The position numbers and the translations under genes are program-made. A stretch of DNA of 64,000 bases from assembly GCA_937996795.1 (NCBI GenBank), contig CALKUH010000045.1, forward strand, positions 3,541 through 67,540, in the 5' to 3' direction. Each line of letters begins with the position of its first letter. Positions within the stretch are counted from its first letter, which is position 1. The DNA comes from an uncultured Verrucomicrobiota bacterium. GTDB taxonomy: Bacteria > Verrucomicrobiota > Kiritimatiellia > CAIVKH01. The notes below the pieces were generated by a model that had not been told where the DNA came from, did not search any database, and saw only the letters and a program-made list of their open reading frames with translations. This document shows positions 6,875-59,501 of the stretch, piece after piece.

Positions 6875-7000
6875 ATGCGCCCTGTTGCCGTCCTTGGGTG
6901 ACGATACGACAGGAATGGTGCGTGTCAAATGCGGGCGGGGGCACGAGGAGGAGAGGGAGACGTGAGGGGACGAGGACACGAGGGCACGAGCGAGGGGGGG

Positions 7001-9398
<2,398 letters not shown>

Positions 9399-10756: not shown

Positions 10757-11521
10757 ATGCCGTCGCTGCGTAAACCGATTGTTGCCGGTAACTGGAAGAT
10801 GAACAAGACGGTCGCCGAGGCCATTGACCTGGCCACCGCGATCAAACGCGAACTCGGCGACTGCAAGGACGTCGACATCGTCCTGTGTCCGCCGTTCACT
10901 GCGCTCAAGTCCGTGAGCGAGGCGATCACCGGCAGCCACGTGGACCTCGGCGCGCAGAACATGCACTGGGAGAAGAGCGGCGCCTTTACGGGCGAGATCT
11001 CCGCCAGCATGTTGCGCGAACTGTATTGCCACTACGTCATCCTCGGCCACAGCGAGCGCCGCGCCTATTTCGGCGAGACGGACGAGATCATCAACAAGAA
11101 GACGAAGGCCGCGCTGGCGTCGAACCTGAAACCGATTGTCTGCATTGGCGAGACCCTGGCGGAGCGTGAGTCGGGCCGTATGAAGGATGTCATCGCGACG
11201 CAGATCCGCGGCAGCCTGGCGGACCTGTCGCCGCGCGAATTGGTCGAGTGCATCCTGGCGTATGAACCGGTCTGGGCCATCGGCACCGGCAAGACCGCGT
11301 CGCCGGAACAGGCGCAGGAGGTGCATGCCTACATCCGCGGCCTGTTGATCGACCTCGCCGACGAAGCGGTTGCCCAATCGGTCCGGATCCAATACGGTGG
11401 CAGCGTGAAGGCGTCGAATGCCCGCGAGTTGTTCAGCCAGCCGGATATCGACGGCGGTTTGATCGGCGGGGCGGCGTTGGAAGCACGGTCGTTCGTGGAA
11501 ATCGTCCGCGGCGCCATTTAG
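10757..11521 (+). CDS. tpiA: Triosephosphate isomerase
   Basis: It has the AYEPVWAIGTG and GGSVK motifs. Confidence 0.95.
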   Translation: MPSLRKPIVAGNWKMNKTVAEAIDLATAIKRELGDCKDVDIVLCPPFTALKSVSEAITGSHVDLGAQNMHWEKSGAFTGEISASMLRELYCHYVILGHSERRAYFGETDEIINKKTKAALASNLKPIVCIGETLAERESGRMKDVIATQIRGSLADLSPRELVECILAYEPVWAIGTGKTASPEQAQEVHAYIRGLLIDLADEAVAQSVRIQYGGSVKASNARELFSQPDIDGGLIGGAALEARSFVEIVRGAI

Positions 11522-11542
11522 TAGAACGGACTGGAGATTGTC

Positions 11543-11980
11543 ATGGGTATCCTGCGTGTGTTGTTGATCCTCGTTGAAGTGGTGACCTGCCTGCTGTTGG
11601 TGGGCGTGATCCTGCTTCAGAAATCGAAGAGCGAAGGGCTGGGTCTTGCGTTCGGCGCTGGCGTCGGTGAAACCCTGTTCGGGTCCCGCGCGGGCAACGT
11701 GTTGACGAAGATCACGGTCACGCTCGGCCTCGTGTTCCTTGCCAACACCGCGTTGCTGGGCATGATCTTCACCCACCAGACTGAAAAATCGATCATCGAC
11801 CAGCGCGTCGGTGCCGCGCCTGTCCAAATGGCCCCGGCGCCCACGCAGCAACCGGTTGAAGCCCCTGCGCCCGCGCCGACCTTGCTGCCCGGCGCAGGAC
11901 TGGACGCGCCGGTCGCTGCCCCCGCCGCTCCGGTGGTGGTGGAGCCCGCGCCGGTGGCCGCGCCTGCACCCGCGCAGTAA
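11543..11980 (+). CDS. secG: Preprotein translocase subunit SecG, with an Ala/Pro-rich C-terminal extension
   Basis: It has a SecG two-TM core (LLQKSKSEGLG) and sits after tpiA in the conserved order. Confidence 0.8.
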   Translation: MGILRVLLILVEVVTCLLLVGVILLQKSKSEGLGLAFGAGVGETLFGSRAGNVLTKITVTLGLVFLANTALLGMIFTHQTEKSIIDQRVGAAPVQMAPAPTQQPVEAPAPAPTLLPGAGLDAPVAAPAAPVVVEPAPVAAPAPAQ

Positions 11981-12076
11981 TTCGCGCCGCTTCGCCACGT
12001 CCAAAGCGCGCCGTCGCCTGATTTCCACTTTGGGCGGCGTTCCAGTTCCTGTACGGTACAGCGATTGGAAATCCGC

Positions 12077-13846
12077 ATGCGCCGCATCGCCGCACTAATT
12101 TTGCTCCCGCTGGCCCTCGGCTGTGCCGGGCGTCTGGAGGAAGATGCTGCACTGCGCGATCGCACGCTGTACCTCTCCACGCTCCGCATCCGCGGGTTCG
12201 ATCCGGCGAAGGTCTCGGATGTCCCGTCCGCCCAGGCGATCCAGCGTGTGTATGAGGGGTTGCTGCAGATCTCTTATCTTGACCGGCCGTACCGCCTGGA
12301 GCCGTTGCTGGCCGACTCGATGCCGGAGCGTTCGGCGGACGGTCTCCGCTACACCTTCCGGTTGCGCCGGGGCCTATATTTTGCTGACGACCCTTGTTTC
12401 CCCGGCGGGCGCGGGCGCGAGGTCACGGCGGAGGATTTCGTCTATTCGATCAAACGGATCGCGGATCGGAAGGTCGGCTCCTCCGGGTGGTGGGCGTTTG
12501 ACGGGCGCATCCGCGGCCTGAATGCGTTTCGCGAGGCGTCGTCCGCGAGCGGTCCGACTGACTACACGCTGCCGGTCGAGGGATTGCGCGCAATCGATCC
12601 CCATACGCTGGTGATCGAACTCACCGCGCCGTATCCGCAATTCCTGTGGATCCTCGCGATGCATTACGGCGTCGTCGTCCCGCGCGAGGCGGTCGAAACC
12701 TATGGCGATCGCTTCAGCAGCCGGCCCGTCGGCACGGGGCCCTACCGCCTCACGGAATGGAAGCGCAACTACCGGATGGTGTTCGAACGCAATCCGAAAT
12801 GGGCGGAGACTGGGCGGGGGGACCGCTACCCCGTGTCCGGTGAAGCAGGGGACGCGGAGCGGGGGCTTCTTGCCGACGCGGGCAAGTCCCTGCCGTTAAT
12901 TGACCGTATTGTCAGCTACGTCGTCGCGGACCCCGCGACGCAGTGGATGATGTTCCTGCGCGGGCAGTTGCTGGAGACCGACATCGCGCGCGACAACTGG
13001 AGTGTCGTGGTCGACGCGCAGGGCGCCCTGTTGCCGGAATTGCAGGCGCGCGGGATCCAACTGGTTGTCGCGCCGCAACTGCGCATCACCTATGTCGGGT
13101 TCAACATGGACGATCCCGTCGTGGGCACGAACCGCTTGCTCCGCCAGGCGCTCAGCAGCGCATTCAACGCGGGGGAATGGATCAAGCTGAACAACGGACG
13201 TGTGCGTCCCGCCATTAGCCCCATCCCCAGCGCGTTGCCCGGTCACGAGGCGGACTATGCGCCATGGCGATACGACCTCGAGCGCGCGAAGCGGCTCCTG
13301 GCCGAGGCGGGCTATCCGGAGGGACGTGATCCGGCGACCGGGCGCCGGTTGGAACTCACGCTTGATCTGGGCCGCGCGGATGACCTGGAGCTGCGCCAGT
13401 CCGCCGAATTGCTGACCGCCTTCTTCGAGCGCATCGGCGTGGTGCTGCGCCTGCAATTCAACAATGGCCCCGCGTTCTACGAGAAATTGGAGCGGCGCCA
13501 GGCGCAGCTCTTCTACTTGAGTTGGATCGGCGACTACCCCGACGCGGAAAACTTCCTCCAGTGTTTCTACGGGCCGAACGCATCGCCCGGATCCAACCGC
13601 GCGAATTACCGGAACCCCGCCTTCGATGCGCTTTTTGAACGGGCGCGCGGGATGGAGGATTCGCCGGAGCGCACGGCCCTTTACGCCGAACTGGCGCGCA
13701 TCGTGATCGAGGATTGCCCGTGGCTGCTGCTTTCGGAGCCGCTGACCTACACCCTCCATCACGAGCGCCTCCGCAACCGCAAGCCGCACCTCTTCTCCTT
13801 CGGCATGGAGAAATATTACCGGTTGGAGGCCTCGGCCCCGCGATGA
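12077..13846 (+). CDS. ABC transporter substrate-binding protein, family 5 (Opp/Dpp-like), lipoprotein
   Basis: The SBP_bac_5-like sequence is present. The N-terminal signal has a cysteine (LALGCAG). Confidence 0.8.
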   Translation: MRRIAALILLPLALGCAGRLEEDAALRDRTLYLSTLRIRGFDPAKVSDVPSAQAIQRVYEGLLQISYLDRPYRLEPLLADSMPERSADGLRYTFRLRRGLYFADDPCFPGGRGREVTAEDFVYSIKRIADRKVGSSGWWAFDGRIRGLNAFREASSASGPTDYTLPVEGLRAIDPHTLVIELTAPYPQFLWILAMHYGVVVPREAVETYGDRFSSRPVGTGPYRLTEWKRNYRMVFERNPKWAETGRGDRYPVSGEAGDAERGLLADAGKSLPLIDRIVSYVVADPATQWMMFLRGQLLETDIARDNWSVVVDAQGALLPELQARGIQLVVAPQLRITYVGFNMDDPVVGTNRLLRQALSSAFNAGEWIKLNNGRVRPAISPIPSALPGHEADYAPWRYDLERAKRLLAEAGYPEGRDPATGRRLELTLDLGRADDLELRQSAELLTAFFERIGVVLRLQFNNGPAFYEKLERRQAQLFYLSWIGDYPDAENFLQCFYGPNASPGSNRANYRNPAFDALFERARGMEDSPERTALYAELARIVIEDCPWLLLSEPLTYTLHHERLRNRKPHLFSFGMEKYYRLEASAPR

Positions 13847-18856: not shown

Positions 18857-20444
18857 ACCTGCTGGATTGGTTCCATCCCCTCACGCGCCGCCGCATCACG
18901 CGCTTCATGGCGTTGCGGCGCGCCTGGTGGTCGTTCCTGCTGCTCGGCGGCGCGTATGTCCTGAGCCTCGGCGCCGAACTCATCTGCAACCAGGATCCGC
19001 TCTACCTGCGTTTTGAGGGACGCCATTTCTTCCCGGTCTTTCGCTTTCATTCCGAGCGCACGGTCACGGGCGAGGGGCAGGACACGCGCCTCGACTACAA
19101 GGCGCTCGTGCGCAGCGAGCGCTATCGCACCAACGGCGCCAACAGGGTCTGGTGGCCGCTGGTGCCGCACGGGCCGTTGGAAATCATCCGCCCCGAGCGC
19201 ATTGAGCTGCCGGACGAGGTGCGGATCCGCATGGCGCCGGAACCGCGCCTCGCTACCGTCAACCTGACGCCGGACCTGCGCGTCACACGCGCGCAGGCGG
19301 CGGGCTATTTCTTCGGTGTATCCGACGGGGCGGAGGAGGGCGTGCTGCTGCCGGAGCAATGGACGCTGCCCGAACCGGTGCGCGCGGCCATCTTGCAGCG
19401 CTTCCAAAACGCATCCGCGCCCGCGGTCGCGGGACTGGCCGTACGGGAGGATGGCGCCCAAGCCGAGGTGTCCATGCCGCCGTTCACGCCGCGCGCCGCG
19501 CCGCCCCGCACGGTGCGCATGACGTTTCGCGAGGCGATGCCGCGCTCGCTCGAATGGTCCGTCAACGTCTCGCGCGACCTGCAGCCCGTCTCTGGCGCCT
19601 GGCCTGAGGCGTGGCAAAACCTGCCCGACGCCGCGCGCACCTCCATCCTGGCGCGCGCGAGCCAGCGATTTGAACGCTTCGTCGAGCCGCTGGCCCTTCC
19701 GATGGCCGACCGCACGTATCGCGTCCATCTCGAACGCGAGGATGTGCGCTATCCCTTCCGCCCCGTGGCCGGCCATCCGCTCGGCATCGACAGCGCGGGC
19801 CGCGACGTGCTCGCGCGGCTCATCTACGGCTTCCGCACCTCGATGACCTTCGGCATGCTGCTCGTCGTGGCCTCGCTCGTGGTCGGCACGCTGATCGGCG
19901 CGGCGCAGGGTTATTACGGGGGACGCCTCGACCTTGTCGGCCAGCGTGTCATCGAAATCTGGGACGCGCTTCCGTTCCTCTACATCCTCATCCTGATGGG
20001 CTCGATTTACGGGCGCAGTTTCACGCTGCTGTTGTTGTGTTACGCCGTCTTCAACTGGATCGGCATTTCCTACTACATGCGCGCGGAATTCCTGCGCCTG
20101 CGCAACTGGCCCTTCGTTGAGGCCGCGCGCTCGCAGGGCCTGCCCACCCGCCGCATCATGTTCCGCCACATCCTGCCCAACGCGCTGGTTCCGCTGGTGA
20201 CGTTCTTCCCGTTCTCCCTCGTGAGCGCCATCGGCACACTCGCCGCGCTCGATTTCCTCGGCTTCGGCCTGCCGCCCCCGACGCCGAGCTGGGGCGAGTT
20301 GCTCGCGCAGGCGCAGGAGGTCAACTGGGCCTGGTGGCTCACGCTGTACCCGTCGCTCGCCCTGTTCGTCGTGATGTTGCTCGGCGTCTTCATCGGCGAA
20401 GGCGTGCGCCAGGCGTTCGACCCCAAACCTTTTTCGAGGATGGA

Positions 20445-20448
<4 letters not shown>
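18853..20448 (+). CDS. ABC permease, OppC-like, with a roughly 290-aa N-terminal extracytoplasmic domain
   Basis: The permease core starts near GHPLGIDSAGRDV. A long N-terminal domain precedes it. There is an ATGA overlap. Confidence 0.7.
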
Positions 20449-21427
<979 letters not shown>

Positions 21428-39718: not shown

Positions 39719-40771
39719 TCAGTTGTTCAGGAACACCTTGACGTCCGCGTTGGTGCGCAAGGTCATCAGGTAGCCCTGGATCACGTCGGGGGCTTTGCGC
39801 TGTTTGATCATGGCGATCAGGTTGGTTTTGACCTCGTCGAAGGGGAGGTCCCGGGCTTCTTCGCGCTTTTCAACCTTGATGATGTGGAAGCCGAACTGGG
39901 TCTCCACCAACGGGCCCACGGCGCCGATTTCCTGCGTGAAGGCCGCTTCTTCAAACGGAGGCACCATCTGGCCGCGCGGGAAGGTGTAGAGACCGCCGGT
40001 TTCGCGGCTGCCCGGGTCGTCGGTTTCCTGCTTCGCGACCTCGGCGAAATCCTCGCCGGCGTTCAGGCGGGCGCGAAGGGCCTCGGCTTCCGCCTTCTTG
40101 GCTTCCTTCTCGTCTTCCTTTTCAACGGCGACAAGGATGTGGCGCGCGGTGGCGAGCTCAGGCTGCTTCATGCGTTCGCGGTTTTCCTCGTAGAACGCGG
40201 AGGCGTCGGCTTCGGAGACCTCGAGCTCGTTCGACGTGACCTGCTCGATCAGCATCGTGATGCGGACTTCGTCGCCGAATTCGCGCTGGAATTGTTCGGG
40301 GGAGACGCCGCGCTGTTCGAGGACCTGCTCCAGGGAAATGCCGGGGGGCAGGGCCGCTTCGAGCTTCGCGCGCGCATCGGCGATGTCCGCGTCGGTCACC
40401 TTCAGGTTCTGCCGGTCGGCTTCCTGGATGAGCAGCTGACGGGCGATCATCTGGTCCAGCACCTGCTCGCGGATGCGCGGCTGCATCTGGGCGAGCTGCT
40501 CCGGCGGCATGCGGCCGCCGATGCGGGCGAGCATGTTGCCGAGTTCCTTCTGGAAGGCTTCGGCGGAAATTTCGACCCCGTTGACGCTCGCGACCGCACC
40601 GGTCAGCGACGCGGTGCGGGTCGGCGGGATCGGCTGGCGGAAGATGTCGGTGGATTCGGAGAGATCGGCGGCGGGTTCCTGCACGGCGGGTTCCTTGGGT
40701 TTGCAACCGGCGCCGACGGACAGGGCAACAAGCGCGCACGCGGTGGCGGTGAAGAATGAACGGGAGGGCAT
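39719..40771 (-). CDS. PpiC-type peptidyl-prolyl isomerase (SurA/PrsA-like periplasmic foldase)
   Basis: It has a C-terminal parvulin domain (FGFHIIKV), SurA-like N-terminal helices, and a signal peptide with Cys. Confidence 0.75.
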   Translation of the reverse strand: MPSRSFFTATACALVALSVGAGCKPKEPAVQEPAADLSESTDIFRQPIPPTRTASLTGAVASVNGVEISAEAFQKELGNMLARIGGRMPPEQLAQMQPRIREQVLDQMIARQLLIQEADRQNLKVTDADIADARAKLEAALPPGISLEQVLEQRGVSPEQFQREFGDEVRITMLIEQVTSNELEVSEADASAFYEENRERMKQPELATARHILVAVEKEDEKEAKKAEAEALRARLNAGEDFAEVAKQETDDPGSRETGGLYTFPRGQMVPPFEEAAFTQEIGAVGPLVETQFGFHIIKVEKREEARDLPFDEVKTNLIAMIKQRKAPDVIQGYLMTLRTNADVKVFLNN

Positions 40772-40835
40772 AAGACGACCTTTCGTTGTGAAGGCGCGAT
40801 GGTGCATAACGCGCCTCGGCGTGTCAAACGTTGTA

Positions 40836-41798
40836 TCAGGCGTCCAGCGGCCACTCGAAATGGCCGGAGGCGAGGAACGTTCGGACCTGTCGGGCGCTAA
40901 ATGCGGACTTGCGGTGGACCGCTTCGTGCGTGTTGAAGGCATTGTGCGGCGTGAGGATTACCCGCGGGTGCCTTGCCAGTTGCAGGAGGCGGGCCGATTC
41001 CGCGGTGGCTCGACCCGTGCGCAACGCGTCGGCCACCTCGGGCTCCCCGGCGAATACATCGAGCGCGACGCCGCCCAGCAGGCCTTCGCGGAGCAGGGGC
41101 TCAAGGTCGGCGGTTTCCACCAGTTCGCCGCGCGCGACATTGACCAGGCAGAGGCCGGGCCGGGCCCCGGCGAGGGTTGAGCGCCGCACGTATGCGCGAT
41201 TCTCCGCGGTCAGGTTCATGCAGAGCGCCAGGATGTCCGCGCGGGAGATGGCTTCGTCCCATGCCACATAGTGGACGTCGGGATGCCGGTGAACCGGGTC
41301 CACGCCGAGCACCTGCATGTCGAGTCCGCGTCCGATCTGCGTCACGGCATGCCCGATGCGGCCCACGCCGGCGACCGCCAGGGTGCGCCCCGCGCATTCG
41401 CCGCCCGTAAGGCCGTCGCGATGGAACGTGTCCCATTGGCGGAGCTGGGCGGGCAGGCGGCGCAGCAGGCTCATCCAGAGGAGCGCCGCCTGTTCCGCCA
41501 CGGCGCGCGAGCAATACTCCGGGAGGGCGGCCAGCGCGAGGCCCGGCGCGCAGCGGCGCAGCGGCAGCAAATGATCATAGCCCGTCGTCCGTGCCAGCAC
41601 GCCGCGGATGTGAAGCTCCCATCCGGGAGGCAACGCCGACTGTGTGCGGATGCTGAGCAGCAGGGCGGGCGGGGTCGTGTGCCCGGCGAGTTGGATCGTT
41701 GAGGCGGTGTATCCCGCGCGCACCCCGGGGCCCAGCTCGGCCGCGAGGGCTGACGCCTCTTCCTCGAACGCCTCGTAGAAAAAAACGTCGTGGTTCAT
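40836..41798 (-). CDS. D-isomer-specific 2-hydroxyacid dehydrogenase (NAD-binding)
   Basis: It has the GVGRIGHAV Rossmann motif and the catalytic R/E/H arrangement. Confidence 0.8.
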   Translation of the reverse strand: MNHDVFFYEAFEEEASALAAELGPGVRAGYTASTIQLAGHTTPPALLLSIRTQSALPPGWELHIRGVLARTTGYDHLLPLRRCAPGLALAALPEYCSRAVAEQAALLWMSLLRRLPAQLRQWDTFHRDGLTGGECAGRTLAVAGVGRIGHAVTQIGRGLDMQVLGVDPVHRHPDVHYVAWDEAISRADILALCMNLTAENRAYVRRSTLAGARPGLCLVNVARGELVETADLEPLLREGLLGGVALDVFAGEPEVADALRTGRATAESARLLQLARHPRVILTPHNAFNTHEAVHRKSAFSARQVRTFLASGHFEWPLDA

Positions 41799-41842: not shown

Positions 41843-41871
41843 TTGACTTCGTGAAGGGACCCCGAGATTAT
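41843..41871 (+). promoter_or_regulatory. Putative sigma70-like promoter for the operon beginning at 41948. TTGACT, a 17-bp spacer, then GATTAT.
   Basis: The hexamers are read directly in the 150-bp divergent intergenic region. Confidence 0.4.
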
Positions 41872-41947: not shown

Positions 41948-43438
41948 ATGGACCAGGACGCCGCGGAAGTCGTTGTCGATGCCCAGATCGAGGAATTTCA
42001 GTCGTTGCGCGGCTCGCGCCCCGGCACAGATGCCAACGTCATCATCCAGATCGCCGTCGGTATTCTGGGTACGCTCATCGTTGCGTTCGGCGTGACTCCG
42101 CTCAATGACACCAAGGCCGACTATCTGTACGGCATCGTCAACGAACGTGGTCCCGTGCAATACCTCGAACTGCTGATGTCCTTCATGGTGGGCGCGCTGA
42201 TTGTCCTCAAGAGCAAGATCGTGAATCGCAACCTGCGGGTGATTGCGTCCAACCCGCTGCCGCCTGAACTCGACTTGAACGACGACAACGCGCTGCAGGC
42301 GTTCCGCGATTCCCTGCCGCAGCGTCCTGAATTTGAGTGGAGCATCCTGCTGAACCGGCTCGACCGGGCGCTTGCCCTCTGGCTGGGCAGCAAGGACATC
42401 GCGCGCGTTTCCTCGTATGTCCAGATGGAGTCTTCGCGCGACCAGAGCTCCTCCGACTCGTCGTATGCCATTGCAAAGGTGCTGATGTGGGCCATCCCGA
42501 TCCTGGGCTTCATTGGTACGGTGCAAGGGCTGGGCGTGGCCGTCGCCGGCTTCGGCGTGCTGGGCGGATCGGCCGACGTCAGCGCGATCAAGTCCGCCAT
42601 CGGCCAGGTGACCGTGGGTCTCGGCGTCGCCTTCGACACCACGCTGCTGGCCCTCGTGCTCACCACGCTGCTGATGTTCCCGCTGACGTCGTTCCAACGA
42701 AAAGAGGAAAACCTCTTCGGCGAAATCGACAACTACCTGGACGACGTCTTGCTCGCCCGCCTCCCGTCGCCCGAGCAGAAGCCCATCGTGATCGAGAACC
42801 TGGAAGACTCCATCGAGGCCGCCTTCCGGCGTTATATCCCGGACCCGGACCGCTACGATGAGGTCTTCACCCGGTCGATCGAGAAAGCCGCGCTGACGGT
42901 CGAGGAGCGCTTCGGCGGGCTGTCCACCAAGTATGAAGCGACCTTGCGCGACCTCAGCCAGCGCGTGGCGGATAATTTGAAGAGCGCGGGCGCCACGGTT
43001 GAGCAGAGCATGCGCGGGATTGCGGACGACCTGCGCAAGCAGGACGAACACGCGATGGAGTCGCGCCGCAAGGCCCTGGCCGATGAAGCCAACCGCTTCA
43101 AGGATGTCGTCGCGGATATTAATTCCACCGCGGATCGCGTCGCGCAATCCTACCGGCAGGGCGCCGAAGCCGTGCAGAGCGCCACCAAGGACACGGTCCA
43201 GCAGGCCCTGTCCGCGACGCGCGACCTGACCGGTCGCATGGAAGAGGTTTCCCGCCTCGCCGCCAACATCGACCAGTTGCTCAAGCTCAACCAGTCGATC
43301 AACCAGAGCATGAGCACCGTCGCCAGCTCGGACCAGTTCCGCGCCACGTTGGAAGACCTGCGGAAGCATTTGTCCACGACCACCGAGTTTTGCGCGCGCC
43401 TGAGCAAGCCGCGCGTGATCACGTTGCGCGAAGAGTAA
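41948..43438 (+). CDS. MotA/TolQ/ExbB-family proton channel with a roughly 190-aa C-terminal coiled-coil tail
   Basis: It has four predicted TM helices including the conserved PILGFIGTVQGLGVAVAGF block. Its heptad-rich tail resembles MCP/TolA-like coiled coils. Confidence 0.7.
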   Translation: MDQDAAEVVVDAQIEEFQSLRGSRPGTDANVIIQIAVGILGTLIVAFGVTPLNDTKADYLYGIVNERGPVQYLELLMSFMVGALIVLKSKIVNRNLRVIASNPLPPELDLNDDNALQAFRDSLPQRPEFEWSILLNRLDRALALWLGSKDIARVSSYVQMESSRDQSSSDSSYAIAKVLMWAIPILGFIGTVQGLGVAVAGFGVLGGSADVSAIKSAIGQVTVGLGVAFDTTLLALVLTTLLMFPLTSFQRKEENLFGEIDNYLDDVLLARLPSPEQKPIVIENLEDSIEAAFRRYIPDPDRYDEVFTRSIEKAALTVEERFGGLSTKYEATLRDLSQRVADNLKSAGATVEQSMRGIADDLRKQDEHAMESRRKALADEANRFKDVVADINSTADRVAQSYRQGAEAVQSATKDTVQQALSATRDLTGRMEEVSRLAANIDQLLKLNQSINQSMSTVASSDQFRATLEDLRKHLSTTTEFCARLSKPRVITLREE

Positions 43439-43459
43439 TCGCACGAATCGGAATCGAGC

Positions 43460-43984
43460 ATGGCCGAAGCGGCAAAAACGGACTTTTCGTCCTTCATGTG
43501 CGTGATTCTGATGCTCACCGGCTGCCTGGTGACCATCATGATCAGCAACATCATCATCATTGCCGCCAACCCCGAAAACGTGCAGATCACGTCGATCATT
43601 CCCCAAGGTATGGACCCGGCCAATGACAAGCCGGTCGAGGACAGCCAGGGCAACATCATCAAGAGCCCGTGGTATCTGGAGGTCTGGCGCGACCGCATGA
43701 TCATCCACCCCGGCGGCGAGGAAATCGGCGTGCGCGAGTTGGAGCAGAAGGACAACGCGTTCGAGCAATTTTTGACACGTGTCCAGGCTCGCAACGACCG
43801 GCAGTACATCGTTCTCCTCGTGCGCGAGCATGGCGCGACGATCGCCCGCAAGTTGAAGAAGGTGATCCGCGACCGGAAAATCGACATCGGTATGGACCTG
43901 CTGTATTCGACGGAGCCCATCAAACTTCGGAACGTCAGCACCGGTGCGGTCGAGACCGCAACCGCCACCGCGGCGGGGACCTAG
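43460..43984 (+). CDS. ExbD/TolR-like protein, first paralog (single N-terminal TM)
   Basis: It has an N-terminal TM FSSFMCVILMLTGCLV and an ExbD-like periplasmic fold pattern. Confidence 0.6.
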   Translation: MAEAAKTDFSSFMCVILMLTGCLVTIMISNIIIIAANPENVQITSIIPQGMDPANDKPVEDSQGNIIKSPWYLEVWRDRMIIHPGGEEIGVRELEQKDNAFEQFLTRVQARNDRQYIVLLVREHGATIARKLKKVIRDRKIDIGMDLLYSTEPIKLRNVSTGAVETATATAAGT

Positions 43985-43993
43985 GAAACCGTC

Positions 43994-44635
43994 ATGGCAA
44001 AAAAGGCCGATGCTACGGGCGCGATCAACCTCGACTCCTTCCTGGATGTGTTGACCTGCCTGCAGGGCATCCTGATGCTGGTCATCATCGCGACAGGCAT
44101 TGATGCCGCGCAGACCAAAGTCCTCGTGCCGACGCCCATCGAGAAACAAAGCACCAAAATTCCGATCTACCTGGAATGCCGTGGAAACCTGATCTACCCG
44201 ATGGAAGTGACCGATCTGGCCCGCCAGGCGCGCATGTCGATGATGCAAATGAGCCAGCAATCGCAGGGCGACCAGACCAAATTGATGCAGGCGCTCGCGA
44301 CGACACGCGTCACCAACGAGTATTATGAGGTCGACCTCACGTATTATCTGCTGGGTCAATTGGTGATCAAGACCCGCGCGGATTCAAACGCCACCGGGCA
44401 CGCCCTCGATGAACGCTCAACGTTCTCCACGGACAACTTCCTGGTCCGCCTGCTCAAGACGGTGGACAAGGACAAGCAGCGCTTGGTGCTGGTGGTCCGG
44501 GACGACAGCTTCAACGTGTTTAAGGTGGCCCAGCGGCTCGCCTTCCTGGCGCAACTGGAACTGGGCGTGGAGATCTACGACGCCCGCGAGCTGCTGCGCT
44601 TCACCCAGCAGGGCGCCCTGATCACCGGCAGTTAA
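43994..44635 (+). CDS. ExbD/TolR-like protein, second paralog
   Basis: INLDSFLDVLTCLQGILMLVI matches the ExbD/TolR N-terminal signature. Confidence 0.7.
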   Translation: MAKKADATGAINLDSFLDVLTCLQGILMLVIIATGIDAAQTKVLVPTPIEKQSTKIPIYLECRGNLIYPMEVTDLARQARMSMMQMSQQSQGDQTKLMQALATTRVTNEYYEVDLTYYLLGQLVIKTRADSNATGHALDERSTFSTDNFLVRLLKTVDKDKQRLVLVVRDDSFNVFKVAQRLAFLAQLELGVEIYDARELLRFTQQGALITGS

Positions 44636-44708
44636 TCCTGCTTTTTGCGCTGACAGCCGCGCGCCGGTTGTTCACAGTATCCGTTTGTTCATCCGGAGGC
44701 GTCGAATC

Positions 44709-45143
44709 ATGTCCGTCATGGAAGCCAAAGAGATCATGCAGATTCTGCCGCATCGGTATCCGATGCTGCTTGTGGACCGTGTCATTGAATGCGACTTCAA
44801 ACAGCGCATCGTCGCGGTCAAGAACCTGACCATGGGCGAGCCCTGCTTCCAGGGGCATTTCCCGAACGACCCGATCTTCCCGGGCGTGCTGCAACTGGAG
44901 GCGATGGCCCAGACCGGCGGCATCCTGATGAACAAGGCCTTCGGACATGAAGGCCGCATCGCGTATTTCCTCGCCGTGGACAAGGCCCGGTTCCGCCGCA
45001 TCGTCCGGCCCGGCGACCAGATCCGCATCGAAGTAGTCTTCCAGCGCGCGCGCCTGGGCATGTCGAAAATGCAGGGCCGCGTCTTTGTCGGTGACGAGCT
45101 GGCGAGCGAGGCCGAGATCATGTTCGGCTATGGGGACGCCTGA
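44709..45143 (+). CDS. fabZ: 3-hydroxyacyl-ACP dehydratase
   Basis: It has the LPHRYPMLLVDRV motif, the GHFP catalytic His and a hotdog fold. Confidence 0.9.
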   Translation: MSVMEAKEIMQILPHRYPMLLVDRVIECDFKQRIVAVKNLTMGEPCFQGHFPNDPIFPGVLQLEAMAQTGGILMNKAFGHEGRIAYFLAVDKARFRRIVRPGDQIRIEVVFQRARLGMSKMQGRVFVGDELASEAEIMFGYGDA

Positions 45144-45146
45144 TTC

Positions 45147-45920
45147 ATGGCCGACATTCATCCCTCCGCCGTGGTTGCGCCAGGCGCTCAGCTGGCCACG
45201 GATGTCGTGGTCGGTCCCTTCTGCTGTGTCGGCCCCGAGGTGTCGCTGGGCGCGGGAACGCGCCTGATCTCGCATGTGGTCGTGAGCGGCTTTACGCGCG
45301 TCGGGGCGGGATGCGTGTTCTTTCCCTTTGCCAGCATTGGCGTGCAGACGCAGGACCTGAAGTTCAAGGGCGGGCGGCCCGGCACGGTGATCGGCGACCA
45401 TACGACCGTGCGCGAGAACGTAACGATTCACGCGGCGACGGACGACGGCAACCTCACGGTGATCGGATCGCACGGCCACATCATGGCCTACGCGCACGTC
45501 GCGCATGACTGCCGCATCGGCGACCACGTCATCCTGTCCAACGGCGCGCAACTCGCAGGCCATGTCCAGGTCGAGGACCACGCCATCGTCAGCGCGATGA
45601 CCGGCGTCCACCAGTTCGGACGGGTGGGGCGCTACAGTTTTATCGGCGCGTACTGCAAGGTCACCCAGGACGTGCCGCCGTATATGCTGGTGGATGGCGT
45701 GCCCGCCCGCGTGCCGGCGCCCAATGCAGTCGGCCTGAAGCGCGCGGGATTCAGCGAGGAAACGCAGCGCGCGCTCAAGCAGGCCCACCGCCTCTTGTTC
45801 CGCAGCGAGCTCGCCACCGGCGAGGCGCTCCGGCAAATTGAGGAAACCGTGGAGCAAACGCCGGAGGTGCGCCATCTGGTCGCCTTCGTGCGCGCGTCCG
45901 AACGGGGCATCGTGAAGTGA
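45147..45920 (+). CDS. lpxA: UDP-N-acetylglucosamine O-acyltransferase
   Basis: It has a hexapeptide-repeat LpxA sequence with a C-terminal helical domain. Confidence 0.9.
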   Translation: MADIHPSAVVAPGAQLATDVVVGPFCCVGPEVSLGAGTRLISHVVVSGFTRVGAGCVFFPFASIGVQTQDLKFKGGRPGTVIGDHTTVRENVTIHAATDDGNLTVIGSHGHIMAYAHVAHDCRIGDHVILSNGAQLAGHVQVEDHAIVSAMTGVHQFGRVGRYSFIGAYCKVTQDVPPYMLVDGVPARVPAPNAVGLKRAGFSEETQRALKQAHRLLFRSELATGEALRQIEETVEQTPEVRHLVAFVRASERGIVK

Positions 45921-47839
45921 AGAAGCTGGCCCATCTTGTTTTGGCGCTGGCGCTGGCGGTCGCGCCGGTCGCGCCGCTGGCTGCGCGGGCGGAAGAGGGG
46001 CCCTACGTCAATTTCAGCTTCGACCAGGTGGAGATTCCCGTCCTTGTGAAGCTGGTCGGCGAAATGACCGGCCGCCGGTTCGTCGTCGGCGAGGAAATCA
46101 CCGGCCGCGTCACGGTCGTAACCCCGCAGCGGATCCCGGTCAAGGATGCCTATCCGCTGCTCGTGTCCATCCTCGAATCGCGCGGACTCGGCATCCTGGA
46201 GCAGGGCGGATTGCACCGCGTCATCCTGCTGCCGGAACGGGCCGTTCCCGGCGCCACCGTGATGATCCCGGAGGATGACAGCACGAATGCCGTGGGGTTG
46301 GTGACCAAGCTGATCCGCGTGCAGCACGTCAGTGTCTCCGAGTTGCGCCGCCTGCTGGAACCGCTTGTGCGCGGCGGCAAGTCCGGCGCGCTCGCGGCGT
46401 TTCCGCCCACGAATCACCTGATCATCACGGACACCGCCGAGAATGTGCGCCAGATCGAGCGCATCATCGGCGAGCTCGACAAGCCCGGCGCGGCGCGCGT
46501 CGTCGATGTGATCCCGCTCAAACACGCCGCCCCGGATGACCTGGCCCGCCAGCTTGTCGCCGCCATGAAGGGCGGCGCGAGCGCCGGCGAGAAAGTATCG
46601 CGTCATCTCCAGCAGGTGGGCGAGGGCATGGGCGCGCTGCCCGCGGACGTCGTGGTCGTGCCCGCGCCCCGCGCGAACAGCATCATCATCGTGGGCACCC
46701 CGGTGCAGTTGAACGAACTGCGCGAAATCGTCGCGCGCATGGATGTCGAGGCGCCTTCGGGGTACGGGCGGCTGCACGCGATCTTCCTCAAATACCTGTC
46801 CGCCGAGGAGGCGGCCAAGAGCCTCACCGCGCTGCTGGCCAAGACCGACAAGGAGCGCGCGCCCATCGCCATCGAACACAACCTTGCGAACAATGCGCTG
46901 GTGGTCGATGCGAGCCCGCAGGATTTCGAATTCCTCAAAAAACTCGTCGAGCAGCTCGACCAGGTGCCGCAGCAGGTCATGGTGGAGGTCCTGCTGGCCG
47001 AGGTCGCCGTCGGGCGCTCCCTGGATCTCGGCGTACGCCTGGCGACGGTGGACCAACCGAAGGACGGTTCCACGACGGTGATTGGCGGCAGTCAGCCCTC
47101 GGAGACGGATGCCGTGATGAATTTCCTCGAGACGGGCGCCTTCCCCCAGGGCCTCGCAATCGGTGTCGCGCGGGGCACCTACACCGATGCGGCGGGCAAT
47201 ATCGTTCCAAGCATCCCGATCCTGATCCAGGCCCTCGCGCAGAATCGCGACGTCAAGATTCTCTCCAATGTTCCCTTGTGGGCGCAGAACAACGTCGAGG
47301 CCAGCGTCAGCGTCGTGGAGAACATCCCGATCCTGCGTTCGACGATCGAAGGCGGGGCGGGCACCTCGCGCGATGTCATCCAGAACATCGACCGCATCGA
47401 TGTCGGCATCAAACTGAAACTCACCCCGCACGTGAATCCCGACGGCGACATCACGCTCCAACTCAACCCGAGCATTGAGGCGATTGTCGATGAAGGCCCT
47501 GCGGATACGCAATTCGCCCCGTCCATCGCCAAGCGCGAGGTCTCCACCACCGTCACCCTGCCGAACAAGGCCACCGTTGTGATCAGCGGCCTCATTCGCG
47601 AAGACCGCGTGAACATCGTGAGCAAGGTCCCGCTGCTGGGCGACCTGCCGCTGATCGGCTTCCTGTTTCGCAGCAAGAGCGAGCGCGTCCAGCGCACGAA
47701 CCTGTTGATCTTCGTGACGCCGCACATCGTGACCGACATGGCGGCGGCGCGCGCGATGCAGCAAAAATTGCAGCAACAAACGAAAATCGATGTCGAACCG
47801 GCGACGCTCAACATGGATGCGCCGGTCCCGTTGAAGTAG
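45917..47839 (+). CDS. Outer-membrane secretin of the GspD/PilQ family
   Basis: It has a signal peptide, repeated Secretin_N domains and the C-terminal VPLLGDLPLIGFLFRS...LLIFVTPHIV motif. Its GTG start overlaps the lpxA stop. Confidence 0.85.
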   Translation: MKKLAHLVLALALAVAPVAPLAARAEEGPYVNFSFDQVEIPVLVKLVGEMTGRRFVVGEEITGRVTVVTPQRIPVKDAYPLLVSILESRGLGILEQGGLHRVILLPERAVPGATVMIPEDDSTNAVGLVTKLIRVQHVSVSELRRLLEPLVRGGKSGALAAFPPTNHLIITDTAENVRQIERIIGELDKPGAARVVDVIPLKHAAPDDLARQLVAAMKGGASAGEKVSRHLQQVGEGMGALPADVVVVPAPRANSIIIVGTPVQLNELREIVARMDVEAPSGYGRLHAIFLKYLSAEEAAKSLTALLAKTDKERAPIAIEHNLANNALVVDASPQDFEFLKKLVEQLDQVPQQVMVEVLLAEVAVGRSLDLGVRLATVDQPKDGSTTVIGGSQPSETDAVMNFLETGAFPQGLAIGVARGTYTDAAGNIVPSIPILIQALAQNRDVKILSNVPLWAQNNVEASVSVVENIPILRSTIEGGAGTSRDVIQNIDRIDVGIKLKLTPHVNPDGDITLQLNPSIEAIVDEGPADTQFAPSIAKREVSTTVTLPNKATVVISGLIREDRVNIVSKVPLLGDLPLIGFLFRSKSERVQRTNLLIFVTPHIVTDMAAARAMQQKLQQQTKIDVEPATLNMDAPVPLK

Positions 47840-47848
47840 GGAACCCCC

Positions 47849-49540
47849 GTGCGCATCGGCGAAATCCTGGCCGCGAAAGGCTATGCGCAGCCGGCCCAGA
47901 TCGAGGCGGCGTTGCGCGAACAGCAGGAGCAGCAGCCCCGCGCGCTGCTCGGCGAAATTCTCTGCCGCCGCAAGGTCATCACCGAGGCCCAGCTCGCCGA
48001 AGCGCTGGGCGAACAGTTCGGCCTGCCGTTTGTCCCCGCCATTGAACCCGTCTGGCTCCAGCCCGCCCTTGTCGAGCGCCTCTCGGTGGACTGGGCCCGC
48101 ACGCACCGCCTGCTCCCGATTTTGCGCGAAGGCCAGGTCTTTGCACTGACGGCGGACCCTGCCGCCGTCGCACGCCTCGATGAACTCTCGCTCCTGCTCG
48201 GTCGCGATGTCGTGCCCCTCATCACAACGTCCGCCGAGCTGCGCCGCGCGATTGATCTCTGCTATGCGCAGCGCGCCACGCCTGGCTGGGCCGCGGAATC
48301 CGCGCCCGACCACGCCGAGACGCCCGCGGAGAGCCATGCCGAGGATCTGCTGCGCGCAACCGAGGATGCGCCCGTCGCGCAATACGTCAACGGGCTGTTG
48401 CTCGATGCGGTGCGCCGCCGCGCCTCCGACATCCATCTCGAGCCGTTCGAGTCCCACCTGCAGGTCCGGTTTCGCGTGGATGGCTTCCTCTACGCGCAGC
48501 CTCCGCCGCCCAAATCGATTGAGTCCGCGTTGGTCTCCCGCATGAAGGTGATGGCGCGGCTCGACATCGCCGAGCGGCGCCTGCCACAGGACGGCATGGC
48601 CAAGGTCCGCGTCGGCCCGCGCGAGTACGACATCCGCGTGTCCACCGTGCCTGTCGCCGAGGGTGAGCGCGTCGTGCTGCGCCTGCTGAACCAGGAATCC
48701 CTGCTGCGTCCGCTCGGAACGCTGGGCATGCCCCCGGCCGTTGAATCCGATTTCCGCCGCGTGCTGACCGAACCCAACGGCGTCATCCTCGTGACCGGTC
48801 CGACCGGAAGCGGCAAGACCACCACGCTCTATGCCGCGTTGCAGGGCCTCGACACGCAGCGCCTGAACGTGATGACGATCGAAGACCCCATCGAGTACCA
48901 GTTGCCCGGCATCGCGCAGATCCAGGTGAAGCCGAAGATCGGCCTCACCTTCGCCCAGGGCCTGCGCCACATCCTGCGCCAGGACCCGGATGTGATTCTC
49001 GTGGGCGAAATCCGCGACGCGGAGACGGCGGAGATCGCCATCCGCGCCTCGCTCACCGGGCACCTCGTCTTCAGCACGCTGCACACCAACGATGCCCTCT
49101 CCGCGGTGATCCGCCTCGTGGACATGGGCGTGCCGTCCTACCTGCTTTCCTCCGCCTTGCGCGGCTGCCTCGCGCAACGCCTCGTCCGCCAGCTCTGCCC
49201 GACCTGTCGCAAGGCGTCGTTCCCCAACGAAGACGAGCTGCGTTCCCTCGGTCCGCATGCCGAGCGCCTGCGCGGCAAGGTCATCTGGCGTCCGGTCGGC
49301 TGCCCCGAGTGCCTCGGCGGCTACCGCGACCGCTGTGGCCTTTATGAATGGATCCGGTTCGGCGCCGACTGGGAATCCGCCCTGCGCGCCGGCGCGGACG
49401 GCGACGCCCTGCGCAAGCGCCGTCGCGAGATGGCCGTGCCCTCCTTGCTGGACGACGGGTTGGAGAAGGTCCGCAAGGGCGTCACCTCGCTGGAGGAAGT
49501 CCTCCGCACCGTCAGCGCGGACGCCGCATCCGTCCCATGA
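47849..49540 (+). CDS. Type II secretion/type IV pilus assembly ATPase (GspE/PilB family) with an N-terminal GSPII_E_N domain
   Basis: It has Walker A GPTGSGKTT, Asp and His boxes, and the C-terminal tetracysteine CPTC...CPEC. Confidence 0.85.
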   Translation: MRIGEILAAKGYAQPAQIEAALREQQEQQPRALLGEILCRRKVITEAQLAEALGEQFGLPFVPAIEPVWLQPALVERLSVDWARTHRLLPILREGQVFALTADPAAVARLDELSLLLGRDVVPLITTSAELRRAIDLCYAQRATPGWAAESAPDHAETPAESHAEDLLRATEDAPVAQYVNGLLLDAVRRRASDIHLEPFESHLQVRFRVDGFLYAQPPPPKSIESALVSRMKVMARLDIAERRLPQDGMAKVRVGPREYDIRVSTVPVAEGERVVLRLLNQESLLRPLGTLGMPPAVESDFRRVLTEPNGVILVTGPTGSGKTTTLYAALQGLDTQRLNVMTIEDPIEYQLPGIAQIQVKPKIGLTFAQGLRHILRQDPDVILVGEIRDAETAEIAIRASLTGHLVFSTLHTNDALSAVIRLVDMGVPSYLLSSALRGCLAQRLVRQLCPTCRKASFPNEDELRSLGPHAERLRGKVIWRPVGCPECLGGYRDRCGLYEWIRFGADWESALRAGADGDALRKRRREMAVPSLLDDGLEKVRKGVTSLEEVLRTVSADAASVP

Positions 49541-50730
49541 AAACGTTTGCGTTTCGCGGTTATGCGCGGGGGGGCGAGCGCACGCGCGGCCTAATCGAGG
49601 CGATGGATCCCAAGGAGGCGCGCGAGAAACTCGCCGCGCGCGGCGTGCTCGCGGAATCCGTGAATCCCGCCGGCGCGCACGGCGGTCGCCGCCGCTTCGG
49701 TTCCGCTGATCGATCCTCCCTCTATCGTGAACTTGGTTCGCTCCTCGCGTCGGGCGTGCCCGCCGTGGCCGCCCTCGACATCCTGCTCGACGCCCAGCCG
49801 CGCGAGCACATCGCGGCCCTGCTGGCCGCAGTACGCGATGCGCTGCGCGAAGGCGCCGGTTTCGCCCAGGCCCTGCCGGCGGCCTGCCCGGACATCACCG
49901 AATTTGAGATCGCCCTTCTCCTCACCGGCCAGCGCACCGGCCAACTCGGCGCCGTGCTCGCCCAGATGGCCGACTACCTCGACGAACAGCGCCGCCTGCG
50001 CGAGAGCATCCAATCCGCGCTGCTCTATCCGATGCTGGTCATCGGCCTTTCGCTCATCGTCGGCGTCGTCATGATGCTCGTCGTCCTGCCGCGCCTGTCC
50101 AACCTGTTTGAAGAGACCGGCGCGCAACTGCCCTGGCTGACCCGTGCGCTCCTGTGGATCGGCGGCCCCGGCCGCCTTCCGATCCTTGGCGTGCTGGCGG
50201 TTGTCGCCGGCGGTGTCTGGTGGAACGTGCGCAGCCTTCGCCGTACGCCGGAATCGCGTGTGCAGTGGGAACAGCGCTGGATGCGATGGCCGCTGATCGG
50301 CGTCGCCTTCCGCCACGTTGTCAGCATCCGTTTCACGCGCACCCTGGTCGTCCTGCTGCGCGGCGGCGTGCCGCTTGTCGAAGGCCTGCCGCTCGCGGCG
50401 CGGGCCAGCGGCAGCCGCTGGCTCGACCAGGAGATGAAACGCGGCGCGGAAACCGTGCGGCAGGGACGGCCCGTCGCCGCCGCGCTCGCGGATGCCCCGT
50501 GGGTCGGCGCGACCCTTCCGCCGTGGTACCGTGCGGGTGAAGCCAGCGGCGATCTCAACGGCATGCTCGAACAAGCCGCGCGCCGCTTCCAGGAACAATG
50601 GGAAACCCTGCTTCAACGCGTCGTCCGCCTCATGGAACCCGCGCTGATCCTGATGGTCGGCGTCTTCGTCCTGCTCGTCGCCCTCGCCATCCTGATGCCG
50701 CTGCTCTCGCTCAACCAGATGGCGTTCTGA
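49537..50730 (+). CDS. Inner-membrane platform protein (GspF/PilC family)
   Basis: It has two T2SSF repeats and three TM segments. Its ATGA overlaps the gspE stop. Confidence 0.8.
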   Translation: MKTFAFRGYARGGERTRGLIEAMDPKEAREKLAARGVLAESVNPAGAHGGRRRFGSADRSSLYRELGSLLASGVPAVAALDILLDAQPREHIAALLAAVRDALREGAGFAQALPAACPDITEFEIALLLTGQRTGQLGAVLAQMADYLDEQRRLRESIQSALLYPMLVIGLSLIVGVVMMLVVLPRLSNLFEETGAQLPWLTRALLWIGGPGRLPILGVLAVVAGGVWWNVRSLRRTPESRVQWEQRWMRWPLIGVAFRHVVSIRFTRTLVVLLRGGVPLVEGLPLAARASGSRWLDQEMKRGAETVRQGRPVAAALADAPWVGATLPPWYRAGEASGDLNGMLEQAARRFQEQWETLLQRVVRLMEPALILMVGVFVLLVALAILMPLLSLNQMAF

Positions 50731-50731
50731 G

Positions 50732-50780
50732 TTGCAACGTCTGTAAAAACTTTTTGGGGCGTTTACAACGTCTGTAAATT
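50732..50780. repeat. Paired 17-bp motif, locus 3. The copies are at 50732-50748 (TTGCAACGTCTGTAAAA) and 50764-50780 (TTACAACGTCTGTAAAT).
   Basis: The copies are read directly and share the 32-bp period of loci 1 and 2. They lie between convergent genes and overlap the bioD stop codon. Confidence 0.8.
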
Positions 50781-58628: not shown

Positions 58629-59501
58629 TCAAGGTGTCAGCAGCGGCTGGATGTGCGGAACGAGGCGTATGTTGAGCGTGCGCGACTCGCCGCCCTTGGA
58701 GACGCCGACGAGGAAACGATTGAAGAACTCTGCGTGCTGGCCCAGGCCGCCGAGGTCGATGGATTGTCCATCCTGCACCACGACTTCCGTTGAAACGGAG
58801 GCGAAGCGCGCGTGTTCAGGGCGCCCGTTCACCAGGCCGCGCAGTTCGGGAATCAACTTCACGCGGACGAGCGGGCCGTCCCCGACGATCGTGGGTTGCA
58901 CCACGAGGAAGGACCCGACCTCCTGCCACGCCAGTTGCGGCGCGCCGATCCCGCCGGGCCATGCGTAACTGACGAGCCATTGCAGGTAGGGCACGCTCTC
59001 GCCGATGCGCAGGAAGCCCTCGCGCCCGCTGCCGACCAGCAGGATCTGGCGGTCGGAGGAGGTGCGCGTCGTGGACTGGCTGATGATCTTCGGTTTCACC
59101 GTGATGGTGCCGCCCAAACCCGCCGGTCCGTGGGTGACCTCGCCGGACGCGCCCAGCGAGGCTTCGAACTCGTCGTTGGACGACTGTCCGTCAAAAAAGA
59201 CCTCAATGCGCACGTTTCGCGCGGGCACGGCGAGTTGTTTCATCATGTCCGCGATTTGGGCGTGTCGATCCGGCGTGGTCACGACGAGCAGGCGTTGGTT
59301 TACCCGGTCGGGCGTGATCTGGCCCTCCGTGCCGACAAACGCTTTCACCGCTTCCATCGCGGTGTCCAGGTCCATCGTGCCGATACCGTAGATTTCAAAT
59401 CGGGCCGGCGGCGTCGCGGGCGACTCGGCGCGCAGGGCTGTTCCGGATAGCATGAACAGCAGCGTCCCTGCGCGGAGCAACAGAGACCAGAACGTCATCA
59501 T
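58629..59501 (-). CDS. Miniature secretin-domain protein. One Secretin_N module is joined to a compact secretin C-domain. It has a signal peptide.
   Basis: FASVSTEVVVQDGQSIDLGGL followed by TLNIRLVPHI matches the secretin pore-domain signature. It is only 290 aa. Confidence 0.55.
   Translation of the reverse strand: MMTFWSLLLRAGTLLFMLSGTALRAESPATPPARFEIYGIGTMDLDTAMEAVKAFVGTEGQITPDRVNQRLLVVTTPDRHAQIADMMKQLAVPARNVRIEVFFDGQSSNDEFEASLGASGEVTHGPAGLGGTITVKPKIISQSTTRTSSDRQILLVGSGREGFLRIGESVPYLQWLVSYAWPGGIGAPQLAWQEVGSFLVVQPTIVGDGPLVRVKLIPELRGLVNGRPEHARFASVSTEVVVQDGQSIDLGGLGQHAEFFNRFLVGVSKGGESRTLNIRLVPHIQPLLTP

Follow-up and report, generated by a model that had tools for sequence, protein, structure and literature searches.

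Eight genes on the + strand of a 64,000-nucleotide stretch of DNA from an uncultured Verrucomicrobiota bacterium (Kiritimatiellia, CAIVKH01; GenBank assembly GCA_937996795.1, contig CALKUH010000045.1, positions 3,541 to 67,540; hereafter the window) raise the question of whether a proton-driven motor, two enzymes of lipid A and fatty-acid synthesis and a type II secretion core that are encoded in one row also work as one machine. The row fills positions 41948-50730 and consists of g1, encoding a divergent channel subunit of the MotA/ExbB/TolQ family, g2 and g3, encoding two ExbD/TolR-like membrane proteins, and then fabZ, lpxA, gspD, gspE and gspF. An initial annotation of the window had read these genes as a single transcript for one coordinated outer-membrane device, or for a secretion device powered by the motor. 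Comparing the envelope modules over about 150 related loci (Kiritimatiellia and the Planctomycetes-Verrucomicrobia-Chlamydiae (PVC) group), we concluded that the locus probably places side by side two envelope modules that are conserved separately in Kiritimatiellia, namely module A (g1-g2-g3) and module B (fabZ-lpxA-gspD-gspE-gspF), and is not one machine. It exposes two conserved, undescribed features, the motor trio and the fabZ-lpxA-gspDEF linkage; the layout of the trio itself resembles known arrangements.

Conservation of the gene order in related genomes had been named beforehand as the test of the grouping, scattered homologs being taken to speak against it. All ten window proteins were mapped onto 79 species-level genome loci anchored on g1. 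The trio g1-g2-g3 was present in every locus with enough sequence and stayed together wherever it was located, with or without module B behind it. The eight-gene order, with fabZ-lpxA-gspDEF directly after g3, was kept in 31 of the 68 evaluable species-level relatives (~46%), and other genes followed g3 in the remaining 37. The 31 adjacent loci comprise the window's whole clade, a scatter of loci from neighbouring clades and a single locus of the deep clade, L069, with a g1 that is 41% identical. A metagenome sample anchored on GspD from a lineage without the trio upstream gave a similar picture, the trio preceding module B in only 5 of 24 loci, and in L084, L085 and L086 module B was intact behind a histidine kinase or DinG-like helicase gene, the trio not being upstream. 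The homologs are thus scattered in part: given that the modules lie apart in 37/68 g1-anchored and 19/24 GspD-anchored loci, two modules exist, and whether they are adjacent depends on the lineage, so that their adjacency does not speak for a single machine. What is linked tightly and unusually is the lipid A gene pair and the secretion core, rather than the motor and the other genes.

The initial annotation had also pointed to a local absence of TonB, TolA, TolB, Pal, pseudopilin, prepilin peptidase and GspC/L/M, and this was borne out across the 64 kb. None of them had a Pfam match among nearly all codon-plausible open reading frames (ORFs) of the window, Pfam scans detected no Gsp-type gene in the window beyond gspD, gspE and gspF, and the prepilin motif had no match in its six frames. 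Neither TonB nor TonB-dependent receptors were found in the window ORFs scanned or adjoining the trio in relatives with annotated neighbours, tolA, tolB and pal were absent from the window and from annotated related loci, and no gene for GspC/L/M, a pseudopilin or a prepilin peptidase lay next to gspDEF in any related locus examined. Two small genes after gspF in L084 were checked as candidate pseudopilins and are not pseudopilins. Genes for the other parts of the secretion system must therefore lie elsewhere in the genome or have diverged beyond recognition. As to cultured relatives, Tichowtungia aerotolerans is a Kiritimatiellota species. It is reported to have no discernible TolA or TonB homolog (PMC12204202), and for Kiritimatiella glycovorans a type II secretion system is reported, but TonB-dependent receptors are reported to be lacking (PMC5148204).

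Adjacency of the two modules is kept across 41-82% g1 identity, the deep-clade locus included, which could reflect selection for co-expression and weighs against reading the locus as a juxtaposition. Every product of the row has its place of action in the envelope, and the divergent gene next to the row that is conserved encodes a SurA-like protein. These observations would suit a single functional machine, in which the motor energises the secretin, ATPase and platform or a combined outer-membrane device, replacing GspC/L/M or TolA/TonB, with fabZ-lpxA co-regulated; so would the lack of GspC/L/M and pseudopilin genes beside gspDEF and the lack of discernible TolA and TonB homologs in T. aerotolerans. 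Such a machine is nevertheless improbable in view of the separation of the modules in both samples, a module B that is internally intact beside unrelated upstream genes, a trio that is cohesive whichever genes follow it, and a g3-fabZ spacer that varies tenfold in length and carries a promoter-like motif; moreover, no sequence feature links the two sets of genes. The coordinated outer-membrane device proposed initially is not supported, the row splitting into two modules that are apart in more than half of the relatives, and for a secretion device powered by the motor we found no evidence.

All eight ORFs have coding-type codon composition (G+C at third codon positions, 0.79-0.87), and the gene order and tight packing described initially held, except for the gap range of 0-49 bp: the fabZ start is most likely ATG 44709, downstream of GGAGG at 44695-44699, so that the largest intergenic gap is the 73 nt between g3 and fabZ. 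The sigma-70-type promoter that had been placed ahead of the row (TTGACT-N17-GATTAT, 41843-41871, +) was recovered by a consensus scan, and in eight relatives TTGACTT is invariant and the second hexamer, (G/A)AT(T/C)AT, near-invariant within surrounding DNA that is not conserved. The promoter would serve g1-g2-g3 and possibly the genes beyond. The spacer between g3 and fabZ ranges from 52 to 578 bp across relatives, with 52-92 or 67-92 nt in the window's clade and 380-578 bp in distant relatives. In the window it holds a putative module boundary (44640-44678, +), a T-run followed by a candidate promoter, CTGACA (44650-44655), N17 and CACAGT (44673-44678). Nine close relatives share the motif TTTTTG(C)GCTGACA, with CAnAnT 17 nt further on, in a spacer that otherwise varies. 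It resembles a weak sigma-70-type promoter and remains a candidate, since it falls below the promoter-scan threshold and its presumed -10 element, CACAGT, matches the consensus at 3 of 6 positions.

The conserved T-run with the motif behind it, the long spacers of distant relatives and a weak 5-bp hairpin that spans the g3 stop in the window just before the T-run would be expected if the row consisted of two fully independent, abutting transcription units, g1-g3 ending at the T-run and fabZ-gspF starting from the spacer promoter, with a co-orientation that has no regulatory meaning. At the same place in L010 (spacer at ~2651-2744) a GC-rich hairpin (CTCCCGGCGGGGAG) stands ahead of the conserved T-run, making a real terminator at the module boundary possible there. 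In the window, however, the terminator scan did not pick up the weak hairpin, the spacer folds no differently from the ordinary (z 0.57), the -10 candidate is poor, and the compaction of the spacer to 52-92 nt in the window's clade fits read-through. Neither terminator scan nor RNA folding found a strong terminator in the 73-nt spacer, which also counts against a sharp division into two modules. Full independence of the two units is thus rather doubtful; under the two-module reading, read-through from the g1 promoter into fabZ is plausible, and so is a separate start at fabZ.

The gene identities given initially along the row were correct by profile searches, that of g2 and g3 only remotely so. 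In module B, FabZ (3-hydroxyacyl-acyl carrier protein (ACP) dehydratase; 44709-45143, +) scored 180 bits with NF000582 (cut-off 113) and 173.6 with TIGR01750 (155), and LpxA (UDP-N-acetylglucosamine O-acyltransferase, the first step of lipid A synthesis; 45147-45920, +) scored 343 with NF003657 (226) and 326 with TIGR01852 (231), both proteins thereby exceeding NCBIfam equivalog cut-offs. The type II secretion secretin GspD (45917-47839, +) reached 395.8 bits with TIGR02517 against 351.35, at equivalog level, and carries an N0 domain, three Secretin_N stretches and the Secretin domain. The type II secretion ATPase GspE (47849-49540, +) has a full-length Pfam T2SSE domain (437 bits; TIGR02533 574.7, below the cut-off of 630), and the inner-membrane platform protein GspF (49537-50730, +) matches Pfam T2SSF in two stretches (TIGR02120 288.5, below the cut-off of 424), in agreement with their initial assignment as secretin, ATPase and platform. 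The N-terminus of GspE, encoded from 47849 to ~48280, is an MshEN domain, which binds cyclic di-GMP (c-di-GMP) (Pfam 48 bits; NF053729 46.8 against 38; motif RIGEIL...G...L..AL..Q). The secretion ATPase is hence probably controlled by c-di-GMP. Its orthologs in relatives are annotated with this domain as well.

Among the GspD-anchored loci, fabZ-lpxA lay directly upstream of gspD in 33 of 35 and gspE-gspF downstream of it in 36 of 38, and the fabZ-lpxA-gspDEF block is conserved across the class Kiritimatiellia. As to exceptions, L102 (310-2734) has fabZ and then, ~240 bp on, gspD with no lpxA match, and L125 and L126 have gspD without fabZ-lpxA upstream. In most loci the lpxA stop overlaps the gspD start (NTGA, i.e. 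ATGA, GTGA or TTGA), indicating that the two are probably translationally coupled; in the window gspD starts at GTG 45917 within GTGA, and a signal peptide is encoded. A similar overlap, ATGA, joins the gspE stop to the gspF start at ATG 49537. By literature search we found no report of fabZ or lpxA linked to gspD or gspE.

Turning to module A, g1 (41948-43438, +) encodes 496 amino acids and matches Pfam MotA_ExbB (PF01618) with 26.3 bits, barely above the gathering score of 22.9, many of its orthologs having no precomputed Pfam match. Alignment of the family revealed four hydrophobic, predicted membrane helices followed by a helical C-terminal tail of ~250 residues. The motifs GTVxGL and FDTT are invariant in the last two membrane helices; T191 (IGTVQGL) and T231/T232 (AFDTT), invariant in 19 sequences, would by their position in these motifs be equivalent to the essential pore threonines of ExbB and TolQ. 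An invariant block, PIVIENLEDSIE..FRRYIPDPDRY, comes directly after the last membrane helix, then a helical stretch of ~200 residues and a conserved C-terminal RLSKPRVITLREE. In an AlphaFold (AF2) model the membrane part had a predicted local distance difference test (pLDDT) score of ~80, and the leading Foldseek matches in the PDB were all ExbB, TolQ, MotA or ZorA chains, with probabilities of ~1.0 and E-values of only 4e-3 to 1e-1; the best target-normalised TM-score was 0.66, with E. coli TolQ (9ddm_E). The g1 profile against PDB sequences gave only coiled-coil and apolipoprotein noise, arising from the tail. We concluded that g1 is a strongly divergent ExbB/TolQ/MotA-family protein with the ExbB/TolQ fold.

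Strict orthologs of g1 form about a dozen 50%-identity clusters only. Searching a representative library with the family profile retrieved 486 clusters at E <= 1e-30, rising to 2212 at E <= 1e-10; many of the 150 best matches are 450-1000 residues long, with extra N-terminal extensions and long tails (P0321-P0458). Since the profile retrieved 486 clusters and ten more distant ones that we scanned were only weakly ZorA-like, g1 is part of a large group of MotA-like proteins with long tails, most of which are uncharacterised. One full-length match to the profile, P0338, is labelled as a Cyanobacteria metagenome-assembled genome (MAG). The weak ZorA matches of these distant relatives, those of g1 itself over membrane part and tail (NCBIfam E 1e-5; PADLOC E 3e-6) and the ZorA structures among its Foldseek matches could suggest that module A is a Zorya-like anti-phage defence motor, built of a ZorA-type long-tailed subunit and accessory proteins. 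Yet g1 scored only 24.8 bits against 100 for ZorA_2 and 16.9 against 190 for ZorA_1, a ZorB with a peptidoglycan-binding domain is missing, as are ZorC, ZorD and ZorE, and PADLOC gave nothing for g2 and g3. Homologs of g1 and GspD, at 50-80% identity, are labelled as Kiritimatiellia or carry older MAG names of the "Verrucomicrobia subdivision 5" type; this degree of identity, the presence of the trio in every relative and its conserved housekeeping synteny indicate vertical inheritance, not the behaviour of a defence island. A role in defence is hence extremely unlikely.

The two partners of g1, encoded by g2 (43460-43984, +; 174 amino acids) and g3 (43994-44635, +; 213 amino acids), each span the membrane once, by an N-terminal helix, and have a small alpha/beta domain, and their families are paralogous (hhalign probability 98%, E 1.7e-13). 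They differ at one position of the membrane helix: g3 carries D18 in SFLDVLTC, and this Asp, within the motif SF(L)D(I/V)(L/M)TC, is present in 74 of 75 orthologs, whereas g2 orthologs have Cys, Asn, Ala, Ser or Pro at the equivalent position and Asp in 0 of 76. The layout of one channel subunit with two ExbD/TolR paralogs, as first described, stood; the ExbD/TolR identity of the pair is remote only. Below threshold, Pfam ExbD matched 16 of 31 g3 orthologs (best E 0.0016), and the families recovered in this way for the pair were ExbD and MotB_plug. Several results weigh against the assignment: the window proteins g2 and g3 had zero Pfam matches, PF02472 included; PDB searches with both family profiles were empty even at E 10; Foldseek of the g3 model against the PDB returned nothing better than E 0.1; and hhalign against E. 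coli TolR and ExbD was not significant (probability 5% and 0.7%), the short aligned stretches nonetheless lying at equivalent places. By every single measure the ExbD/TolR assignment is thus consistent but weak. We accept that the trio works like ExbB with two ExbD/TolR-like partners, but refrain from assigning g2 and g3 to PF02472.

An N-terminal membrane helix with a small alpha/beta periplasmic domain is also the architecture of GspL/GspM- and PilN/PilO-type platform proteins, and with g2 and g3 as divergent members of these the locus, otherwise without GspC/L/M, would become a fuller type II secretion operon. This is very unlikely, given the near-invariant intramembrane Asp within SF(L)D(I/V)(L/M)TC, which is as in ExbD/TolR, sub-threshold Pfam matches that were never to T2SSM, PilN or PilO, and the constant company that g2 and g3 keep with g1, often far from gspDEF.

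A further gene was found in 39 of the 79 g1-anchored loci, located between g1 and g2 and encoding a ~655-residue protein with a signal peptide and an N-terminal NHL-repeat beta-propeller (for example L078, 11382-13376; L022, 10801-12831; L035, 11370-13415; L062, ~11356-13338). It passed the threshold of the NHL repeat family and of no other propeller family. The 64-kb window has no copy. The propeller is likely a fourth component of the motor module, and its location between g1 and g2 is perhaps the ancestral state. In the deep-clade locus L062 the trio is followed, a few kb downstream, by an AsmA/DUF748-family gene (outer-membrane lipid transport family; 19318-21321, -) and a tetratricopeptide repeat (TPR) gene, which adds to the envelope-related setting.

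ExbBD, TolQR and MotAB are solved complexes, '5:2' proton-driven motors. By analogy with them, five copies of g1 may form a ring in the inner membrane around one g2 and one g3 helix (5:1:1), and proton flow via the Asp of g3 would drive relative rotation. The pair would be asymmetric, since the Asp that accepts protons in the membrane is retained in g3 alone. The output would be transmitted by the periplasmic ExbD/TolR-like domains and/or by the ~250-residue helical tail of g1, which is probably cytoplasmic, and the secreted NHL beta-propeller may well be a further partner of the motor in half of the lineages. Our best guess is a Tol-like role in outer-membrane maintenance, because T. aerotolerans has no discernible TolA or TonB homolog, K. 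glycovorans has no TonB-dependent receptors and the conserved neighbours act in the envelope. The 5:1:1 stoichiometry, the side on which the tail lies and the role itself are inferred, which tells against this scheme. Module B, for its part, would couple the first lipid A step and the supply of acyl-ACP to the type II secretion core by co-expressing LpxA and FabZ with GspD, GspE and GspF. Transcription from the g1 promoter may read through into it, and it probably also has a promoter of its own in the spacer. It is possible, if speculative and on the whole unlikely, that all of this holds together: that module A represents a separate class of 5:2 motors, with an axle made asymmetric by two ExbD-like subunits of which one bears the Asp and the other lacks it, and with a tail on the ring subunit that is ZorA-like and probably cytoplasmic, that it substitutes for Tol-Pal/Ton, with the NHL propeller as its periplasmic partner, in a phylum with at least one cultured species in which TolA and TonB homologs are not discernible, and that its placement upstream of fabZ-lpxA-gspDEF is a real co-regulation of lipid supply, secretin insertion and energisation.

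Kiritimatiellia are common polysaccharide degraders, and in T. aerotolerans neither a TolA nor a TonB homolog is discernible. For coupling the energy of the inner membrane to the outer membrane in such cells, the trio, which has no known transducer and is conserved universally, offers a concrete candidate. Current models of 5:2 motors use two equivalent Asp residues, so that a heterodimeric axle with a single Asp would bear on how these motors step. The class-wide fusion of fabZ-lpxA with gspDEF, with its overlapping codons, ties the committed step of lipid A synthesis to secretin production. If neither link is functional, the locus is an ordinary packing of housekeeping envelope genes.

The row is flanked upstream by divergent genes for a SurA-like chaperone and a 2-hydroxyacid dehydrogenase (39719-41798, -) and downstream by convergent bioD/bioC/bioF. 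Throughout one large clade (L001, L003, L009, L028 and others) the SurA-like and dehydrogenase genes are retained next to g1 in divergent orientation; they are absent from the deep clade, in which YfhO-like and glycosyltransferase genes stand upstream of g1 instead. In the 48-nt gap between the convergent gspF and bioD the direct repeat CAACGTCTGTAAA is present twice (50735-50747 and 50766-50778), and neither terminator scan nor RNA fold (z -0.69) gave a convincing terminator hairpin in this gap. Eight kb downstream of gspF on the opposite strand (58629-59501, -) is a gene for a short, 290-residue secretin-like protein that has a signal peptide, a single stretch resembling an N-domain and a secretin domain of reduced extent, and which scored 26.1 bits with Pfam Secretin, slightly below the cut-off of 27.5, and had weak PDB sequence matches to PilQ and GspD. 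A small PilZ-domain protein, a c-di-GMP reader, is encoded at 6512-6979 (-), directly downstream of a gene for an LptF/LptG lipopolysaccharide-export permease (7001-8239, -). The remainder of the window is housekeeping, with genes for glycolysis, two oligopeptide transporters, ScpAB, aromatic amino-acid synthesis, LptF/G and biotin synthesis.

Compared with known systems, module A can be set beside ExbB-ExbD of Ton and TolQ-TolR of Tol-Pal, with which it shares the fold of g1, the Gly-Thr and Thr-Thr pore motifs and the adjacency and order of the genes. It differs from them in that g1 has four predicted membrane helices rather than three and the ~250-residue helical C-terminal tail, in that there are two different B-type subunits of which one is always Asp-less, and in that no TonB, TolA, TolB or Pal gene is near the trio; sequence similarity is at or below family thresholds. 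One channel subunit and two non-identical TolR/ExbD-like subunits in a row are also found in AglR-AglQ-AglS, the gliding motor of Myxococcus, and in ExbB-ExbD1-ExbD2, but no Glt-type partner is beside the trio, its recurrent extra gene being that of the secreted NHL beta-propeller. To our knowledge, neither an Asp-less partner nor a long tail of the g1 type has been described for Agl, for ExbB-ExbD1-ExbD2 or for the related clusters of the PVC group. The latter comprise TPR, tolQ-like, two heterologous tolR-like and von Willebrand factor A (vWA) genes (PMC12204202); the trio has the heterologous pair in common with them, whereas the vWA transducer and the TPR gene are not beside it. With ZorA of Zorya, g1 shares a MotA-like membrane part with a long helical C-terminal tail, as reflected in the weak profile matches to both, but the tail of g1 is much shorter, its partners are ExbD-like and not ZorB-like, effector genes are absent, and inheritance is universal and vertical.

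Module B resembles the type II secretion core, GspD passing the NCBIfam equivalog cut-off and GspE and GspF having full-length T2SSE and T2SSF domains. Unlike that core, gspDEF lies in an operon with fabZ-lpxA, GspE bears an MshEN domain, and in the loci inspected gspDEF has no neighbouring gene for a pseudopilin, a prepilin peptidase or GspC/L/M. Many Gram-negative bacteria have an lpxD-fabZ-lpxA-lpxB cluster, in which, as here, fabZ is immediately upstream of lpxA; in the window, by contrast, lpxD and lpxB are not adjacent, and lpxA is followed by the secretin gene that overlaps it.

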